A stretch of 36,648 nt of DNA from a virus (taxonomy: Duplodnaviria; Heunggongvirae; Uroviricota; Caudoviricetes). Shown here piece by piece: positions 1,467 to 36,648 of the stretch (positions within the stretch are counted from its first letter, which is position 1; the number at the start of each line of letters is the position of its first letter). The notes below the pieces were generated by a model, which was not told where the DNA came from, ran no database searches, and worked only from the letters and a program-made list of their open reading frames with translations. The stretch is from IMG/VR virus record IMGVR_UViG_2675903330_000001. One strand, given 5' to 3'. Position numbers and translations under genes: made by a program.

Positions 1467-1907
<441 letters not shown>

Positions 1908-2575: not shown

Positions 2576-3127
2576 ATGAAAGAAGAATTAACCCTTACAG
2601 AAATTTCCCGTTTATACGGCTATACAATTAACGCCGCTAAGAAATGGCAAGAACGAGGAATGCCATTTAATACCAATACCCGCCGCGTGCCAGCCAAAGA
2701 AGGAACAGAATGGGTCTTGAAAAATATCATCAACCCGCTTAAAGAAACTACTGTCAAGGAACAAATCGACGTAGAGAAATTACGCCGTGAGAGAGCATTA
2801 GCAGATGCAGCCGAACGAGAGAACCAGGAAGCGATGAATCTCCTGATTCCCGTCGGGTATGTGGAGCAGGAGCTAGCGGAATATTGCGGGAAAGTGAAGC
2901 AGACTATTTTGCAGATCGCCACAATCGATGCCCTAGAAATTCTCGAATCTGCCAATGACCAGAAAACATTGAAGAATAAGCTAAGAGAGATTATCGAGCG
3001 TCGTTTAAATGAAGTAGGGGACTTGTTCGAAAATGCAGATTTGGGAGAAGACGAGGAAGAAGAATTACCATTAATGGATGAACCGGAACAAGAACCAGAA
3101 GAAGACGATGAATTTGATGTGTCTTAA
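2576..3127 (+). CDS. Nu1-like winged-HTH DNA-binding protein, probable terminase small subunit
   Basis: GGAGG 8 nt upstream of the ATG at 2576. N-terminus LTLTEISRLYGYTINAAKKWQERGMP resembles the lambda Nu1 HTH (TIQNWQEQGMP); acidic C-terminal tail. A gpA-type large terminase (9781) normally pairs with a Nu1-type small subunit. Confidence 0.5.
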   Translation: MKEELTLTEISRLYGYTINAAKKWQERGMPFNTNTRRVPAKEGTEWVLKNIINPLKETTVKEQIDVEKLRRERALADAAERENQEAMNLLIPVGYVEQELAEYCGKVKQTILQIATIDALEILESANDQKTLKNKLREIIERRLNEVGDLFENADLGEDEEEELPLMDEPEQEPEEDDEFDVS

Positions 3128-5413: not shown

Positions 5414-5981
5414 AAGTAGATTCCTCAAATGTGGATTAATAAGGACAATAAAAAGAGCTTTTCGCCCTCGATACTTCTATTTATAAAAGTCATTTCAGAA
5501 AACCCTGCAAAACCACTGTATATCTGATCAGTGGGAGCACGAATTGCTAAAGAGAAGATTAATAATTAATCAATTCGTACATTATTCAATCGAAAAAGCA
5601 CTGTGTGTTTAACCAGTGCTGTGTGTGTTAACAGTGAATCAGGGGATTTTCAGAAGTGAACAATCATTTCATGCATGTATTTATACACGAAAAAATCTTG
5701 TTTATCATCAATATGTGGATTGTTTCGAAAATTTCAACCCCTACCAATGAGAAAAAGTATAAAATAATCCTTGACAGTTGTCAATGCACTTGACCTAAGC
5801 GAGAAATGACTATCAAAATTTTTGTGTGAAAATGGCGGATAACGATTATCAACCTTTATAACCTATTATAGCACGGCGACCTTTTGATAATTCTTTTTAA
5901 ATCATGCATTTACAGCGATTTTTGGTGATTTTCCGGTTAAATAATATACAAGAATTTTCTATCAAAATTTTTGATGAAAAA

Positions 5982-6122
5982 CCTACACTACAAACCTACG
6001 CTTTAAAGGTATTGGCCTACACTACACTAGTCAGTAAACCTACACTATAACACCCTCAAACCTACACTATGAAACCCTCAAACCTACACTATGAAACCTA
6101 CACACCTACACTAACCCTACAC
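5982..6122. repeat. iteron-like array: at least 9 copies of CCTACAC within about 21-bp tandem units (AAACCTACACTATGAAACCCTC)
   Basis: Direct count of CCTACAC/CCTACGC at 5982, 5995, 6016, 6039, 6061, 6083, 6097, 6105 and 6116. Confidence 0.8.
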
Positions 6123-6700
6123 TTCAATCTCATAAGTGTATGATCTTGAAAGACATTTCACCCCACAGACCATAGAATATAAAATTCGAACTAACGTTCT
6201 CCTTTTTGCTCGTTTTCTCTCACTACGTTCAAGAAAGATCTCGCAAAAAGAATACGGCGTAGCCGTGCGCGAAGCGCCCATCAACACCTTCTAAGACCTG
6301 CAAGCAGGATTCGAAAGGGATTGGATAGTTCGCTTCGCTCACGTTCACGCCTACGGCGTTCACTCGCTTTTGAAAGGATTTTCTTAGAAAGGGATTTAAT
6401 ACTAGTTACTAACTGATTCTAGTAAACGAACGAAGTGAGTAACAATCACTTTCTAGAAAGGTATTGGTATCCCTTCGGGATTGCAACCTTCGGTTGCTAA
6501 ATTGCTTCCTGATTATAATTTCTCCAAAAGAAAGATTCTTATATTCTAAAGATACTTCTTCGTTTTGATGATGATTTAATCAAATATATGAAGGAGGGCT
6601 TTAGCCCGACTGAATCCAATCACTTCCAAATAGATAAAAAATTCTCGTTATAAATAATAGTGAACTTACTTGATTCACTTTCTTTTAGAGGATTTCCACT

Positions 6701-7692: not shown

Positions 7693-8526
7693 ATGAATAC
7701 TGTTACTACTATGAATACTGCTGTTAAAACTGCTTCCGTGTCTCTGGTTGTTGATAACGAAGTTGCAAAAATGACTCTTCGTGAAATTGCCGACCTTATT
7801 GGAGTTCGTTTTTCAAACCTTGAAACTTCTATGAACCGACTGGTTGAACGCCAAGTTATCCGAAAACCTGCAACGCAGAATTTCGAGAAAATCAATAACT
7901 TAGGGTTTGCTGTTACTGTTAAAGATTATGTGTTTGAGGGTGAGCAAGGTCGCTTAGATTCGATTGTCTTGATTGCTCAAAACGTACCGGAATTTACTCG
8001 CCAACTGGTTGACCGTTGGAATTATCTGGAAGAGAAACTGAAAACCGCCAATAATACTCCTGTTAACCCGTATGCGGACTTTGAAGAAACCGACTGGATC
8101 GAACTGGCATTAGATGAAAAACGCAAAAATAAAAAACTGATTGAGCTACACATTCGCAAATCCGTAGATAGCCATTCTATGACACGTCTGTTAGGCGCTA
8201 AAAAGGGCGCTACGAAGGTTAAACAAGCACTGACGGCCTTACGTACTGCTGGCTACATTGAGCGCGTCTATGATGAAAATAACAAGCCGTGTGGGTATGT
8301 TGCTAATGACTCTTCTCTGTCTTTCTGCCGCATGAATGCTCATTACCAGCTTGAGTTTACTGTTGATGTTCTTCCGGTGCTGGTTGAATTGGGCGTTTTG
8401 GAAGAAGAACAGAAAGCAACTCTTAAACTGCCGCAGCCAAATAACACTATTCTGATTCAAAACAAAGCTGCTAAACAGATTCGTGAATCAGGTAACGTAA
8501 TTTCCCTTGTTGATTTTGGGATCTGA
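7693..8526 (+). CDS. phage regulatory protein, Rha-like (putative antirepressor)
   Basis: AAGGGGA RBS; N-terminal MTLREIADLIGVRFSNLETSMNRLVERQ resembles the Rha-family N-terminal DNA-binding region. Confidence 0.45.
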   Translation: MNTVTTMNTAVKTASVSLVVDNEVAKMTLREIADLIGVRFSNLETSMNRLVERQVIRKPATQNFEKINNLGFAVTVKDYVFEGEQGRLDSIVLIAQNVPEFTRQLVDRWNYLEEKLKTANNTPVNPYADFEETDWIELALDEKRKNKKLIELHIRKSVDSHSMTRLLGAKKGATKVKQALTALRTAGYIERVYDENNKPCGYVANDSSLSFCRMNAHYQLEFTVDVLPVLVELGVLEEEQKATLKLPQPNNTILIQNKAAKQIRESGNVISLVDFGI

Positions 8527-8532
8527 TTAATC

Positions 8533-8562
8533 GCCCGGCGCATAATTGCGCTGGGCTTTTTT
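8533..8562 (+). terminator. rho-independent terminator
   Basis: GCCCGGCGC-ATAATT-GCGCTGGGC stem followed by T6, immediately after the 8526 stop. Confidence 0.7.
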
Positions 8563-8573
8563 GTATCTGATGC

Positions 8574-8790
8574 ATCCAGATTTGGATTTATCGGAAGAAT
8601 CAATAGGTTAGAGATGAGCGCAGTTTTGCGCCGATTGATTCAAGTTTGAATTTCTCGAAAGAATCAACCACTTAGATAGATACGCTGAACTTTAAGCACA
8701 TCTCCTCAGTTTTGAGGGCATCTATAGATCAGTCCAAATCTGGACTCATCGGAAGAATCAATGACTTAGAGATGTGCTCAGTTTTGAGCG
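8574..8790. repeat. three tandem 50-70 bp direct repeats (core TCGGAAGAATCAAT ... TTAGAGATG ... CAGTTTTG), outer copies prefixed by inverted CCAGATTTGG / CCAAATCTGG
   Basis: Copies at about 8574-8640, 8648-8720 (degenerate) and 8725-8790, lying between convergent terminators. Confidence 0.7.
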
Positions 8791-8794
8791 GATA

Positions 8795-8824
8795 TAAAAA
8801 AGGCCAACCCCGAAGGATTGGCCT
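8795..8824 (-). terminator. rho-independent terminator for the minus-strand operon
   Basis: AGGCCAA ... TTGGCCT hairpin preceded on the plus strand by A6, giving a T-run on the minus strand after the 8831 stop. Confidence 0.6.
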
Positions 8825-8830
8825 AGAGAA

Positions 8831-9061
8831 TCAAATTCCTGTTGCTTCTACCATTTCACCGTCAACCTGAACAAAGAATTTCAAATCAACTTTATGTAGG
8901 GATTTGTATAGCTGGGCTATAGATAAGCCATGCTCATTTAATACCCGTTCTTTGTTCTCTTTACCTTTCGGTGCTTGATAGTACGCTTTTACAATCGCTG
9001 CCAGTTGTTCACGATTAAAACGGGCAGGGCGACCGCGAGTAGCTTTAGTAGTCATAGTCAT
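8831..9061 (-). CDS. small DNA-binding protein (about 75 aa)
   Basis: GGAG RBS; ATG at 9061 or 9055; TKATRGRPARFNREQ followed by an HTH-like GLSIAQLYKSLHK. Confidence 0.45.
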   Translation of the reverse strand: MTMTTKATRGRPARFNREQLAAIVKAYYQAPKGKENKERVLNEHGLSIAQLYKSLHKVDLKFFVQVDGEMVEATGI

Positions 9062-9090
9062 TTTCTCCAAATTAAAGTGAATGTTCACCT

Positions 9091-9693
9091 TTATTTAGAG
9101 GACTTACATTTTATAGGAAAAAGTTCTCCATCGTCAACCGACATAAAGAACTCTGCCTTAATCCCGTACTTCTTCAACCGTGAATAGTATGTACCCCGAC
9201 TTATATCAACCTTGCGCAGCACTTCGAAGAAGGACTTAGGATCGTTGTAATAGTGGCTATATCGCACGTTAGCGAGTTCTACAAACAATTCCCTTGTATC
9301 ACCATAGCCTTTCTTAAAAGCCTCGTTACGATAGCGTGTAATAGCGTGATTCAATCTCTTCTGTTTCAACACTTCTCGGATCGGCTTCCACTGCAACCGA
9401 TAGATAGGACCGTCATCAATGCGATAATAACGCTTGATATCAAAATCAAACCAATCTCGGACTCTCCGAAACTCTGTATGTGATGTTCTATGCTTCTTAA
9501 AGAAGTTGTGAACGTCTGTATAACCATTATCGCGGTAAAATTCTATTAAAATCTCTTTCGCTTCCTCACGGCTAAACCCAGATGTTGTGTAGTCGGTCTT
9601 CTTGTGATGGTGCTTAACTGGCAAACGATATTCATGATCGGTACAAGACAAGGCTAATTCTAATTCATCTCTTTCTTGCTGATTAATTAGCAT
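9091..9693 (-). CDS. hypothetical HTH-containing protein (200 aa)
   Basis: Transcribed divergently from terL; C-terminal [23 protein letters not shown] is HTH-like; an internally repeated basic/aromatic segment. Confidence 0.45.
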
Positions 9694-9780
9694 ACACCCT
9701 CCTTAAATCTTAATACCCGTATTTATCAAAAAATCAACAATTTAATAAATACCTTCATATTTCGTAATGAGGGTAATTAC

Positions 9781-11685
9781 ATGAAACTAATTTCTAATAA
9801 GGCCAAATTAAAAAAGATTCTTAAAAATGCAGCCAAATATATTACGCCACCGCCTAAACTCCTTCCATCGGAATGGTGCGAATCTAATATGGTGCTGGTA
9901 GATGGTCCTCAAGCTGGGGATAAAGTTAAATTGCTGTCATTCCAGAAAGGTATGATTGATGCTCCTTTCCTTGAGAACAAGAAAAAGTATGTTCTGATGA
10001 CCAGTGCGCAGATCGGAAAGACTACCATCCTGAACGGTATCCTGTTTAACCAGATGGCTAACGATCCATGCAATATGATTATCGGACAATCAACCGCTAA
10101 AGAAATGTCTCAATATCTCGCTGGTAAGATCCGACCGTCTATCGAAGCATGTGATGCATTAAAAGACGTGGTTACAGACAAGAATGATCGCAATTCTGTT
10201 AATAACAACAATCAGCTCCAGCTCAAATCAAACCACTTCCTTTATATGGTATCGCTTACTAGTCCATCAACCCTGCGCGGTAAGACTGCAAAGGTCGGAC
10301 TACTAGACGAAATCGATGCTGCTACAGCCTCAGAAGAAGGTGATCCGGTGGCACTGGCTGCTAACCGTTTAACTACCTTTGGCGATGAAGGCCGATTAGT
10401 CGTATCCAGTACCCCGACCAGTAAGCTGGGAAGCATTAACCAGCAATGGTTATCAAGTGATATGCGTATGTTTTTTGTTCCGTGTCCTCATTGCGGGGAA
10501 CACCAGGTGATCGAGTGGGAAAACGTTCAATTTGAATGGCGTAACATCGATGGTAAGAACTTACCCGATCCTGATACCGCTCGTTATATTTGCCCCCACT
10601 GTAAGAACGCATGGACAGAAGGGGAACGAATCAGGGCAGTAGCACAAGGCGAGTGGAGAGCAACCCGTGAAAGTGAAGTAGCCGGATTCTGGATTAGCCG
10701 TCTGTATTCACCTTTCAGCACGATCCGCGCTTGTGTGGTTGATTTTAGTCATGCGTGGCAATCCTTTGATTTACAATCATTTTATAACACCGTGTTAGGC
10801 AAAGTATACGACGATCAGGACACGGCAGTAGAAGCAAATGAACTGGAACAACTCAAAACAGATGTTTCTATCGAGAATATCCCTGATGACGTGATTTTCT
10901 TGTGTGCGGGTACTGACCAGCAATTAGATCGCGCAGAAACTACAATCATGGGCGTGGCAAAGGATAAGATTTATATTCTGGATCATCGCAGCTTTTACGA
11001 TCATAACTGTGAACGATATGAATCCCCTGTATGGGATAGATTAATCAACTTCCATAAAACCAAATTTACTACTGTATCTGGTGATCGTGTTCCTATGCTC
11101 GCCAGCTTCCTTGATACATCGAACGGTCGATTCACTCAAGCTGGATACCGTATTTGCGGCAAGTGGAAGAACTTACACGCTATCAAAGGTAGTTCTGCTG
11201 GTAACGCTCCGATCATTCCGGTTAAACCTACCCGCACAGGTGGTCATGAATTGCTTATGTTGGGTGTTAATGTGGGTAAAACTGCATTTCGTGAAATGTT
11301 GGCTAGGAACCTGAAAGATAATCCTCATATTGGCTTAGAAATATCAGACACCGTTCCTGATGATTATCTCGATCAGCTTTTAAGTGAATCTGTCAAGCGT
11401 ACTACTACTGGCGTGAGATGGGTAAAGAACCCAGGCGTTAGGAACGAGGCGCTCGACTGCGCCGTGTATGCTACAGCGGCTTCTCGCTACGTCCTTTCAA
11501 AAATGTCATGGGATAAACTCATTGCAATGAAAGACAGCTTAAACAGCGTTAAAGAAGAACCCGTAAAAGCTCCTGAATCGCAATCTGACGAGCAAATCGA
11601 AGAAACTAAGCCAATCACACGACCGCAACGTCAAAACATCGCCAGACGCCCAAATAGAGGCCGTAGCTGGGTAACATCGTTCTAA
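9781..11685 (+). CDS. terminase large subunit, lambda gpA-like
   Basis: GAGGG RBS; Walker A-like [10 protein letters not shown]; paired Cys motifs CPHCGEHQ ... CPHCKNAW; 634 aa; lies upstream of the portal gene. Confidence 0.8.
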
Positions 11686-34827: not shown

Positions 34828-36495
34828 TTAAATTCCAAATTCCTGTAATGGACCTGGTATTTCCTCTTCTGGTTTCCAGTCTTTATCTGTCAGCATGTCT
34901 AAACATGGATGCAGAACAAGCCCGTTACTCTCCAGAATCTGCCTATCATTGATAGTTTTCAAATCGACAAAGATTTGTCCTTTCCTCGTTCCTCTTGAAT
35001 TTTCTATTACAACTCTCTGGGTCTTTCCATCGATGTATTCCAGCACAAACAAGTTTTTATTTCTGTCAATCCTGCTACACCCGATCCGCTTTAGAGCTTG
35101 CTTAATCTTAAACCGGACCTTTAGTCGTTCCTCGTTATAAACATCTTCTAAATCAAATTCTGCGAGCTTCTCCCAGCCTTGAGAGTCCACAGAATACATT
35201 TCCTCTTCTGCCATCTTGATCTGATTGTAGAGTGTTTCACGCTCGCTATTGAGGGTAGTAATCTGATCGGCTAGCTCCTTCGTTGCTCCTGTCATAGCAG
35301 AAAGGGCAATCAGGTTATCAATCTTGCGTGATATCTCATCAACCTGTACTTTCAACGCCGGAACCGGATTAGCCTTGTCCTCAGCAATCCATATTTTATC
35401 AGCCAGCAATTGCAATACAGCTTTCTCTAATTGATCACCTCGAAAACTCCAGTTTGGATGCTCGCAATCAAGTCTACGTGAACGGGTCGCATCACATGTA
35501 TAACGATACTGGTCAGAACGTTTGTTCGTTCCCTTCACTTTAACCATAGCGCAACCGCAATGATCACATTTCAATAGGCCAATACCACTAAGCAGGGGGA
35601 TCGGTTTAACTTCTTCCTTGTCTCCAAAGTTCCATGCTCTAGCACCAATATTTTTCTTAAGGTGATAGAACGTAGCATCATCAATAACACGAGGGTAATA
35701 ATCCTTTAACTCATAGTTAACACCATCTACAGAGACTTCCTTGATACCAATCAAAGCGCGGGTATGGAACAACCTTTCAACCATTGCCCGTGACCATTTT
35801 GAATGCTTCTTATTACTAACCGCTGGTGGCGGTGTATATGTCTCGTTAAGGTGATCCAGTATTTCGGCGGTTGAACGTCCATTCTTCCGTAATTCCACAA
35901 TCTCCTGAACAACAGGGAAGTATGTAGGATGAGGCAACACATAACCGGAAGTGGTATCCGTCCACCACATATTCTTTCCAACTTCCTCGATTGCCACTGC
36001 CGGATTCTGGGGATTTTCTTGATGGGCTTTAATCTTAATCAGTGCGCTTGAGTTAGTACGATTGCGCTTAGTCTGGCTTTCCTCATTACCACGGATGAAT
36101 AAAAGGATGGAGAACATCAGGTCCATCGGGTTAGCGGTAACAGTATCCAGCGAGTAGATCTTGTTATCCATGCCAGTAACAATGGTTATCCCCCTACGGA
36201 TGATTGAAAGGAATAACTCCTGCGCACTGACAATATCGGCACGGGATAAGCGGTCCAAGTTTTCAATGAATAGCCAGCTACCAACAGGAACGGATCTACC
36301 AATTGCATCAAGGAAACGAGATAGCGCCCCTGTTTTGGAGTTAGCACCCTTAAACGCAGATACACCCAGATCCTGATAATCATTTACCAGTTCAAGGTCA
36401 TACTTTGCCGCAACCTCTCTCGCCATCCTGATTTGTCGTTCATAACTCGAACCATCATTCTGACGCATAGACGAGAAGCGAATATACGAATACAG
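34828..36495 (-). CDS. large serine recombinase (prophage integrase), 5' end interrupted by IS1
   Basis: Resolvase-type catalytic region, recombinase domain, zinc ribbon (CDHCGC ... CDATRSRRLDCEH) and coiled-coil. The catalytic Y-x-R-x-S motif (LYSYIRFSS) lies upstream of the first ATG (36468) and runs directly into the IS1 terminus at 36496 with no start codon in between. Confidence 0.8.
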   Translation of the reverse strand: MYSYIRFSSMRQNDGSSYERQIRMAREVAAKYDLELVNDYQDLGVSAFKGANSKTGALSRFLDAIGRSVPVGSWLFIENLDRLSRADIVSAQELFLSIIRRGITIVTGMDNKIYSLDTVTANPMDLMFSILLFIRGNEESQTKRNRTNSSALIKIKAHQENPQNPAVAIEEVGKNMWWTDTTSGYVLPHPTYFPVVQEIVELRKNGRSTAEILDHLNETYTPPPAVSNKKHSKWSRAMVERLFHTRALIGIKEVSVDGVNYELKDYYPRVIDDATFYHLKKNIGARAWNFGDKEEVKPIPLLSGIGLLKCDHCGCAMVKVKGTNKRSDQYRYTCDATRSRRLDCEHPNWSFRGDQLEKAVLQLLADKIWIAEDKANPVPALKVQVDEISRKIDNLIALSAMTGATKELADQITTLNSERETLYNQIKMAEEEMYSVDSQGWEKLAEFDLEDVYNEERLKVRFKIKQALKRIGCSRIDRNKNLFVLEYIDGKTQRVVIENSRGTRKGQIFVDLKTINDRQILESNGLVLHPCLDMLTDKDWKPEEEIPGPLQEFGI

Positions 36496-36648
36496 GGTAA
36501 TGACTCCAACTTATTGATAGTGTTTTATGTTCAGATAATGCCCGATGACCTTGTCATACAGCTCCACCGATTTTGAGAACGACAGCGACTTCCGTCCCAG
36601 CCGTGCCAGGTGCTGCCTCAGATTCAGGTTATGCCGCTCAATTCGCTG
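36496..36648 (-). mobile_element. insB: IS1 (partial; insB-proximal inverted repeat and 3' end of insB), continues beyond the window
   Basis: GGTAATGACTCCAACTTATTGATAGTGTTTTATGTTCAGATAATGCCCGATGAC ... is the reverse complement of the IS1 right end; the minus strand encodes the InsB C-terminus (...[20 protein letters not shown]...). Confidence 0.9.

Follow-up and report, generated by a model that had tools for sequence, protein, structure and literature searches.

What are the three tandem direct repeats that stand upstream of terL in a prophage of Escherichia coli, and what might they do for the phage? The repeats form an array at 8569-8794 of the window, by which we mean the whole stretch of 36,648 nucleotides (nt) analysed here (IMG/VR record IMGVR_UViG_2675903330_000001), a complete E. 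coli contig (CXZM01000037.1) that carries a prophage of ~34.6 kb. An original prediction had offered three possibilities: small-terminase binding sites of a cos/pac region, a recombinase or invertase target pair, or binding sites for the adjacent helix-turn-helix (HTH) proteins. Alignments show the repeats to be extragenic copies of a putative cis element that lies within genes of the Rha/Roi family of phage regulators. We think that the array is not an essential phage site, and we lean, with moderate confidence, towards an accessory cluster of binding sites for Rha/Roi proteins of several specificities and for the integration host factor (IHF) of the host, a putative sink, decoy or sensor.

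The three repeats were found where they had been predicted. A 44-nt unit starts at 8569, 8633 and 8727, with spacings of 64 and 94 nt, and its later copies are 73-77% identical to the first. Over 8569-8794, the direct repeats measure 44-61 nt each and are 73-82% identical; the outer copies (8575-8635 and 8733-8793) align over 61 nt with 82% identity. Three occurrences of a 24-nt core pattern, TCGRAAGAATCAAYNNNTTAGAKA, were counted in the window, always within the array, against 0 expected from 100 dinucleotide-preserving shuffles. Each unit runs from a dyad through a perfect IHF core (WATCAANNNNTTR) to a 24-bp dyad of the form GATG-N6-NTTT-N6-CATC. The second spacing is 94 rather than 64 nt because of an extra dyad (8699-8722), so that the three units and the extra box amount to seven dyads (b1-b7) and three IHF cores. 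The features of the array and of the gene upstream are as follows; box and core names are predictions, bit scores and E-values are those of R1, a covariance model of Rha boxes described below, and related phages are cited by locus number (L016, L018 and so on).

7693-8526, plus strand: Rha/Roi-family regulator gene, 277 amino acids (aa), with an N-terminal winged helix of HK022 Roi type
7862-7902, plus strand: intragenic cis module, consisting of the dyad GAAAACCTGC-AAC-GCAGAATTTC (7862-7884) and the IHF core AATCAATAACTTA (7890-7902)
8533-8562, plus strand: intrinsic terminator of the Rha/Roi-like gene, hairpin and T run
8569-8592, plus strand: Rha box b1, GATGCATCCAGATTTGGATTTATC, first dyad of unit 1, inner arm ATCCA; R1 21.0 bits, E 0.015; 22/24 identity with the intragenic box of an unrelated IMG/VR Rha gene
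8598-8610, plus strand: IHF core 1, AATCAATAGGTTA, perfect core
8613-8636, plus strand: Rha box b2, GATGAGCGCAGTTTTGCGCCGATT, inner arm GCGCA; R1 14.7 bits, E 0.38; 21/24 identity with the intragenic box of the L021-type allele
8638-8651, no strand: dyad b3, ATTCAAGTTTGAAT, first dyad of unit 2, inner arm ATTCA; missed by R1
8662-8674, plus strand: IHF core 2, AATCAACCACTTA, perfect core
8679-8702, minus strand: Rha box b4, GATACGCTGAACTTTAAGCACATC, inner arm GCTGA; R1 8673-8707 minus, 18.1 bits, E 0.068
8699-8722, plus strand: Rha box b5, CATCTCCTCAGTTTTGAGGGCATC, inner arm CCTCA; R1 8694-8732 plus, 21.6 bits, E 0.011; CATC arm in common with b4; 20/24 identity with an unrelated intragenic box
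8727-8750, minus strand: Rha box b6, GATCAGTCCAAATCTGGACTCATC, first dyad of unit 3, centre flipped relative to b1, inner arm GTCCA; R1 8724-8752 minus, 21.2 bits, E 0.014; 21/24 identity with the box of the L018 allele
8756-8768, plus strand: IHF core 3, AATCAATGACTTA, perfect core
8771-8794, plus strand: Rha box b7, GATGTGCTCAGTTTTGAGCGGATA, inner arm GCTCA; R1 8772-8793, 21.4 bits, E 0.012; 21/21 nt identical to the L016 allele coding sequence for D-V-L-S-F-E-R
8801-8824, minus strand: intrinsic terminator of the leftward 74/85-aa open reading frame (ORF)

The centre-to-centre distances in the array are 24.5 nt from box to IHF core, 19.5-21 nt from IHF core to box, and 20-20.5 nt (once 28) from box to box, and neighbouring boxes have a 4-nt CATC arm in common. 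No two of the seven inner arms are alike, and six are among the 16 types known from natural genes. The sequence CCAGATTTGG (8576-8585) is the exact reverse complement of CCAAATCTGG (8734-8743), as had been noticed; the two were taken to flank the array, but they proved to form the centre of the first dyad in unit 1 and in unit 3, respectively, and they differ only at two central bases because each is an imperfect palindrome. The description of the middle copy as degenerate was half right, since it retains a perfect IHF core and two dyads. It contains in-frame stop codons, and on our own reading nothing in the array is therefore coding. A plus-strand terminator (8533-8556) precedes the array and a minus-strand one (8824-8801) follows it, which bears out the convergent terminators of the original prediction; from the end of the array to the start of terL (9781) is 986 nt, in agreement with the distance of about 1 kb given there. 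The statement that it is not a CRISPR array also holds: the dyads vary between constant linkers, and cas genes are absent.

No promoter-like sites were found within the array, and blastn of the array region against the phage database gave no matches. An Rfam scan placed no family in the array; tRNA alone reached the gathering threshold, and a relaxed scan returned terminator noise only. A general scan of the window detected 45 dyads versus 36 in shuffles, a difference that is uninformative alone, and a covariance model was used in its place.

The 277-aa protein encoded upstream of the array (7693-8526) shows 50% identity to HK022 Roi over its N-terminal 106 aa (E 4e-29). It has no Pfam match above a family cut-off; its alleles in related phages score above the cut-off for PF09669 (Phage_pRha), and the NCBI name for homologues is 'Rha family transcriptional regulator'. 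An AlphaFold2 (AF2) model (pLDDT ~80-90) depicts a winged helix, with a helix at residues 40-52 followed by a beta-hairpin at 60-82. The Protein Data Bank (PDB) held no sequence relative, and Foldseek gave weak winged-helix matches only (E > 0.1). A hypervariable segment of ~130 nt in the Rha gene encodes helix 3 and the wing; it is mosaic and sharply bounded, with flanks that are near-identical between phages. The intragenic module (7862-7902) falls on residues 58-69, the first wing strand and turn. At the other end of the protein, all Rha-like alleles terminate in …FG(L/I) (window 8500-8526), and the same ending is seen in an unrelated 214-aa protein encoded in place of the gene in L030 (4312-4956), which suggests that this shared end is a conserved docking tail.

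The units of the array match one part of this gene only. When the arrays were compared with the Rha-gene alleles of 21 related phages, 85/85 blastn-short matches fell within nt ~150-275 of the ~830-nt coding sequence, an interval that encodes the wing and lies inside the hypervariable segment. The 61-nt units of the array show base-for-base alignment to stretches inside the window gene, HK022 roi and the L017-type allele. Five allele classes could be distinguished, each with its own near-perfect palindrome of 24-26 nt (GATG-n-stem-loop-stem'-n-CATC) at the wing-coding position. Within the window, the sole intragenic copy of the module is that at 7862-7902; the array itself is extragenic and lies outside the wing codons. 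In L032, the array opens with a unit that copies 38 nt of the window allele (89% identity). Allele-specific dyads, the resident allele's own box among them, are repeated nowhere else in the loci of 10-14 kb. The idea that arrays hold non-self boxes only is not strictly true, given that the L021 and L027 arrays each include one near-self box and that the IHF modules of the window array resemble the resident gene's own module.

The box is a general feature of Rha genes. We examined 70 non-identical Rha genes from unrelated IMG/VR contigs and found at least 8 of 13 symmetric pairs in 68 of them, with the centre 41 nt after the H..V.RD motif; in 45 of the 70, palindrome arms of at least 8 bp are centred exactly 41 nt past this motif. 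Hairpins at the strict threshold numbered 46 at that position, versus 5.4 expected from the background density. In the 58 distinct boxes, 87% of cells were paired as compared with 73% in shuffles, none of 500 shuffles reaching 87%, and partners slid out of register gave 28-47%. Compensatory double changes were seen in 107 cells versus 36 expected, and one inner pair showed three pair types with zero unpaired cells. On the evidence of these alignments, the Rha element is shown to be under selection for dyad symmetry. The codons D-x-x-x-F-x-x-I are thus under the constraint of DNA symmetry, and amino-acid pairs such as A/C, V/H, S/G and L/E arise because their codons are complementary. The mismatches (40 G.T, 30 A.C and 41 other) carry no G.U bias, and this, together with the position of the array outside both transcription units and the absence of Rfam or promoter matches in it, points to a dyad that acts as DNA rather than as RNA.

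The outer arms of the Rha box are constant, and the inner arms are variable yet complementary. The inner arm tracks the start of helix 3 (HFH with ATCCA, HPD with GAGCA, HDN with (A/C)CTCA, HKN with GCTCA, HKH/HQH with GTCCA, and HKD with GCGCA), an association that fits allele-specific recognition. Near-perfect palindromes of 24-34 nt are seen at codons D-x-x-x-F-x-x-I in the Rha genes of unrelated IMG/VR phages (L049-L122), and similar ones in Salmonella phage f18SE (L040:1585-1608) and Vibrio phage pA2SJ1 (L041:1597-1618). Literature searches for a described Rha palindrome found none, and we know of no description of a conserved coding dyad in Rha genes; the general coding-embedded dyad thus appears to be undescribed so far.

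The covariance model R1, built solely from unrelated intragenic Rha boxes, was used to search for copies elsewhere. On the 36.6-kb window, its top eight matches all fell in 8569-8794, and the next match outside had an E-value of 6.5. These eight matches correspond to six distinct boxes (E 0.011-0.38), two of which score better on the minus strand. On 264 kb of related loci, 53 of 53 matches were intragenic or array boxes. On 253 kb covering 78 other Rha/Roi-region loci (1.5 kb around each), R1 detected no extragenic boxes, only the intragenic position; extragenic arrays therefore seem peculiar to this prophage family.

The IHF cores follow the same architecture as the genes. The window contains 12 perfect cores versus 3.2 expected, five of them within 7890-8768. 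The core at 7890-7902 lies inside the Roi-like gene at codons K-I-N-N-L, with the dyad 7862-7884 upstream, and the sole IHF core of HK022 roi occupies the same codons. P22 rha (L203:39575-40180) has the dyad GCGCAtttTGCG followed by the core AATCAATAACTTA at codons E-K-I-N-N-L, again the sole core in the region; no R1-type 24-bp box was found in this gene. In 19 of 20 distinct IMG/VR Roi-type genes, AATCAATAACTTA stands at the same place and is preceded by an allele-variable 13-bp dyad (for example CCTGCAtTGCAGG, CCGCCAaTGGCTG or CCTCAAaTTGAGG). The intragenic element in the wing codons thus comes in two forms, a ~24-bp Rha box and a shorter dyad with an IHF core ~10 nt after it. Each of the three array cores lies ~6-11 nt downstream of a dyad, the arrangement of the Roi/P22-rha type. 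Other perfect cores are found at 1956-1968, 9732-9744 and 36507-36519 (minus strand), near both prophage ends and in the 88-bp gap upstream of terL. In hosts deficient in IHF, lytic growth is blocked by the Rha proteins of phi80 and P22, and rha is itself under the control of IHF (PMC4936722). The dyad and core of P22 rha may be the physical basis of this IHF dependence. For Roi, Clerget and Boccard (1996, J Bacteriol 178:4077), a study cited in PMC3430580, reportedly found binding to a site in its own gene beside an IHF site, with IHF stabilising the complex.

How constant is the array among close relatives? The original prediction had proposed a comparison of conservation and copy number across related prophages, and the outcome was variability. 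The comparison set comprised 21 loci including the window, with TerL 80-99% identical, and four more found by the repeat pattern. Among the 21 near-identical phages, the number of dyads per array ranges from 0 to 7. An empty spacer of ~20 bp is present in L017, L018, L020, L023, L028, L029 and L034 (TerL 93-98% identical). L022 has a truncated remnant only, L030 one degenerate box and L033 one unit; in L016, L019, L021, L024-L027 and L036 the number of dyads is one to five. The full three-unit array is restricted to the window, L035, L032/L004 and L001. The absence or variation of the array in near-identical phages rules out an essential cos, pac or origin. The array is accessory and dispensable.

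Among 5426 complete E. coli genomes, 55 contain terL, 20 have any array match and four have the whole array. The matches in the 20 genomes lie in 1-2 places each; every place examined was this prophage, and the Prokaryotic Genome Annotation Pipeline (PGAP) gives no annotation there. A scan of 185,579 GTDB species genomes for the array element yielded chance matches only, for instance in a Xenorhabdus coding sequence. The confinement of the array to one prophage family indicates that it is not a dispersed host repeat of the REP/BIME kind (repetitive extragenic palindrome/bacterial interspersed mosaic element). Three unrelated complete genomes have the complete array without a single difference (100% identity), and so do phages whose alleles and integration sites differ. 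The closely related prophage of strain L3Cip3 (L038), with an identical array, is inserted in hicB.

Two observations concern the spacer itself. At the array position, L020 (4490-4960) carries a 156-aa ORF whose product joins a Rha N-terminal domain with a DUF559/Vsr-like endonuclease domain and resembles a free-standing homing endonuclease that could target Rha boxes. In L028 (4990-5010), the 15-bp 'empty' spacer is inverted (CATACCTACAGATAC versus GTATCTGTAGGTAT, by comparison with L023 and L018), so small inversions between the T-run and the A-run do occur.

Taken as a cluster of accessory sites, the array would work as follows. Dimers of Rha/Roi-type winged-helix proteins would bind the dyads, host IHF would bind the cores, and the IHF bends could fold the array into a compact nucleoprotein complex within a spacer that would be shielded from transcription on both sides. 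The boxes mostly fit alleles other than the resident one, and the array is therefore read as a sink, decoy or sensor of several specificities. This is closest to the third of the original possibilities, the binding of adjacent HTH proteins; the boxes are probably sites for an adjacent HTH protein other than those named at the time, that is, for the upstream 277-aa Rha/Roi-type protein and its allelic relatives. The products of the ORFs at 8831 and 9091, which had been put forward as binders, have no significant family match.

Several points weigh against such a site cluster. The boxes are mostly non-cognate for the resident allele, and an array present once in a prophage could titrate no more than a few protein dimers. 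The array boxes score 14-22 bits versus 35-51 for intragenic ones, with outer arms partly degraded, and they may be weak or dead sites. At least seven of the 21 close relatives have an empty spacer, so that any function is optional, and the 78 other loci lack extragenic boxes, so that Rha systems in general do not have such arrays. One and the same array is found beside two different alleles (window and L032), and one allele beside different arrays; this leaves no sign of tight functional coupling. The association between helix 3 and the inner arm could reflect mere common ancestry. Lastly, both the boxes and the IHF sites of the array are putative.

A bolder version, which we put forward tentatively and regard as rather doubtful, is that Rha regulators, a very large family of phage proteins, carry their own operator in their wing codons and that this prophage family has placed copies of operators of many rival specificities, along with IHF sites, in the silent spacer as a decoy or sensor. 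With an operator in the wing codons, the same nucleotides would specify protein sequence and binding site, and the two would be forced to co-vary. The operator panel would then capture, or respond to, the Rha/Roi proteins of competing phages, a form of interference via DNA-site mimicry. In a related variant, a Rha-domain homing endonuclease, as in L020, would target the boxes and drive their diversification.

The rival that survives best, and to which we assign a minor but real share of our belief, regards the array as non-functional debris. Copies of the box segment would have arisen by palindrome-driven template switching, illegitimate recombination or break-linked gene conversion, and would now be decaying and being deleted; the breaks could come from a Rha-domain endonuclease like that of L020, whose ORF sits exactly at the array position. 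Such a history accords with the 0-7 copies among near-identical phages, the truncated array of L022, the degeneracy of the array boxes relative to the intragenic ones, their non-cognate fit to the resident allele and the in-frame stop codons of the middle unit. Rearrangements do happen here, as the inverted spacer of L028 demonstrates, and the 4-nt CATC arms common to adjacent boxes are what microhomology joins would be expected to leave. Against this stands the fact that the copies come from the cis-element segment alone and from no other part of the gene. The three IHF cores are all perfect, and the TCGRAAGAATCAAYNNNTTAGAKA block is kept across units even though the flanking boxes differ; the differing boxes keep their dyad symmetry through compensatory changes, and the geometry is regular (24.5 nt from box to IHF core, ~20 nt for the other steps). 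The identity of the complete array in three unrelated complete genomes, and in phages that differ in allele and integration site, also argues against debris.

It is improbable, in our view, that the units are silent cassettes that donate sequence by gene conversion to the wing/box segment of the Rha gene and thereby switch its specificity. The array is homologous to the hypervariable segment of the adjacent gene only, and its boxes match alleles expressed by other phages, as in the 21/21 match to L016 and the 38-nt match (89%) of the L032 array to the window allele. Units 1 and 3 are paralogues of each other, but the boxes in them match two different alleles, and the spacer is transcriptionally silent. 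These units, however, cover 25-60 nt of a segment of ~130 nt, never include the helix-3 codons that co-vary with the box, have flanking homology of at most 9 nt, and are out of frame owing to their 20-nt period. In addition, alleles are equally diverse where the spacer is empty, and there is no linked recombinase or reverse transcriptase.

Harder still to credit is a role as RNA, in which hairpins in a read-through or independent transcript would serve as small RNAs, a 3' stabiliser or a sponge. The array region folds strongly as a single strand (z = -5.1), and dyad covariation is the usual signature of structured RNA. Yet intrinsic terminators close off the array from both sides, no promoter-like site lies within it, no Rfam family matched it, and the mismatches are free of G.U bias. 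Two of the boxes are flipped, and the IHF cores are DNA signals.

A cos/pac packaging site, with small-terminase sites and IHF arranged as in lambda cosB, is very improbable. In its favour, the array combines IHF cores with repeated motifs, and a gpA-type terL (9781-11685; Pfam GpA_ATPase and GpA_nuclease) follows ~1 kb downstream. The array is nonetheless absent from at least seven of the 21 relatives, whose TerL is 93-98% identical, and highly variable in others; counting reduced arrays, it is absent or diminished in many phages with TerL 93-99% identical. Two leftward ORFs, 8831-9088(-) and 9091-9693(-), separate it from terL, and its repeats derive from the Rha gene. A Nu1-like terS candidate is present at 2576-3127 (phrog_57, E 7e-16; Pfam Phage_Nu1 below threshold), 5.5 kb from the array and 6.6 kb from terL, and the GC-rich patch just upstream of it (~2390-2470) is a candidate cos.

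A recombinase or invertase target pair, or a dispersed host element of REP/BIME type, is hardly credible. The reverse-complementary 10-mers 148 nt apart, which would favour the first of these ideas, are dyad centres, each belonging to a dyad half; no invertase gene is adjacent or nearby, the sole recombinase being a large serine integrase at a distance of 26 kb, and the relatives examined show no inversion of the segment. The palindrome-IHF-palindrome layout between convergent genes resembles E. coli RIP/BIME-1 (RIP, repetitive IHF-binding palindromic element), but a host element of this kind is refuted by the genome scans, with 1-2 places in each of 20 among 5426 complete E. coli genomes and chance matches only among 185,579 genomes. 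An iteron origin was rejected as well, given that the seven dyads are all different, the resident box is unrepeated and the array is dispensable.

Around these features, the prophage is flanked on its left side by host genes (a serX-like tRNA-Ser, ghrA and a truncated PHP-domain gene). The PHP-domain gene next to ghrA is interrupted by the prophage (window 1482-1907). At the right end of the prophage lies the large serine recombinase gene (34828-36468). The two leftward ORFs between the array and terL encode products with a common C-terminal motif, …F.VD.GE…, and among the relatives the 74-aa ORF, together with its terminator, comes in two sequence types. An ORF-poor stretch of 1.3 kb (5414-6700) contains, at 6036-6113, 3.5 copies (91% matches) of the 22-bp tandem repeat AAACCTACACTATGAAACCCTC, which resembles iterons or operators and could be part of a replication or immunity control region.

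Rha and Roi are among the commonest 'regulatory' or 'antirepressor' annotations in phages, and their sole genetics is a link to IHF that is 30 years old. The locus supplies a concrete candidate target, a dyad (or dyad and IHF core) in the gene's own wing codons with compensatory variation across unrelated phages, and it is a natural array with seven dyad versions. If the predicted binding is true, it would account for the way in which Rha/Roi phenotypes depend on IHF, yield a recognition code for a large family of winged-helix proteins, and constitute a rare case of a protein sequence constrained by its own binding site; it would also raise the question of foreign-operator arrays used by phages against each other. 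If the array is debris, it still marks a recombination-prone junction, and clusters of repeats near terminase genes should not be called cos/pac without comparative evidence.

Several known systems resemble the array to different degrees. Like the pilS locus of Neisseria and the vls locus of Borrelia, it consists of untranscribed segments whose homology is confined to the hypervariable part of an expressed gene nearby; its would-be cassettes differ in being 20-60 nt long, out of frame, without flanking homology and with partial cover of the variable segment. The RIP/BIME-1 elements of E. coli (REP, IHF, REP) likewise place palindromes around an IHF site, extragenically between convergent units, but REP sequences are unrelated to these dyads and occur in tens to hundreds of copies per chromosome. 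Lambda cosB (R3-I1-R2-R1) combines repeats with an IHF site, and here too repeated protein-binding motifs and an IHF site lie near terminase genes; cosB, however, is essential, conserved and directly upstream of Nu1, whereas the array is optional, Rha-derived and apart from both terS and terL.

The iterons of lambda ori are closer, since they are sites of a winged-helix protein inside its own gene and are built from dyad units with an A/T-rich centre, ~20-bp tandem phasing and type variation among related phages. They are near-identical, cognate to O, essential and placed beside an AT-rich unwinding region; the array boxes, in contrast, differ from each other, are mostly non-cognate and are dispensable. 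The rha genes of P22 and phi80 are reportedly the subject of a 1995 study by Henthorn and Friedman. Their likeness lies in the alleles of the upstream gene, which belong to PF09669, and in the dyad and AATCAATAACTTA of P22 at the same codons; unlike the window phage, P22 has no extragenic copies.

The closest system is HK022 Roi, which resembles the N-terminal domain of the window protein (50%). Both genes carry a dyad and a perfect IHF core at the same wing codons, and the array units repeat this same dyad-plus-IHF architecture. The HK022 element is single and intragenic, whereas here three to seven extra copies are extragenic, mostly of foreign specificity, and optional. The array is thus a variant of the Roi intragenic site with its IHF partner.

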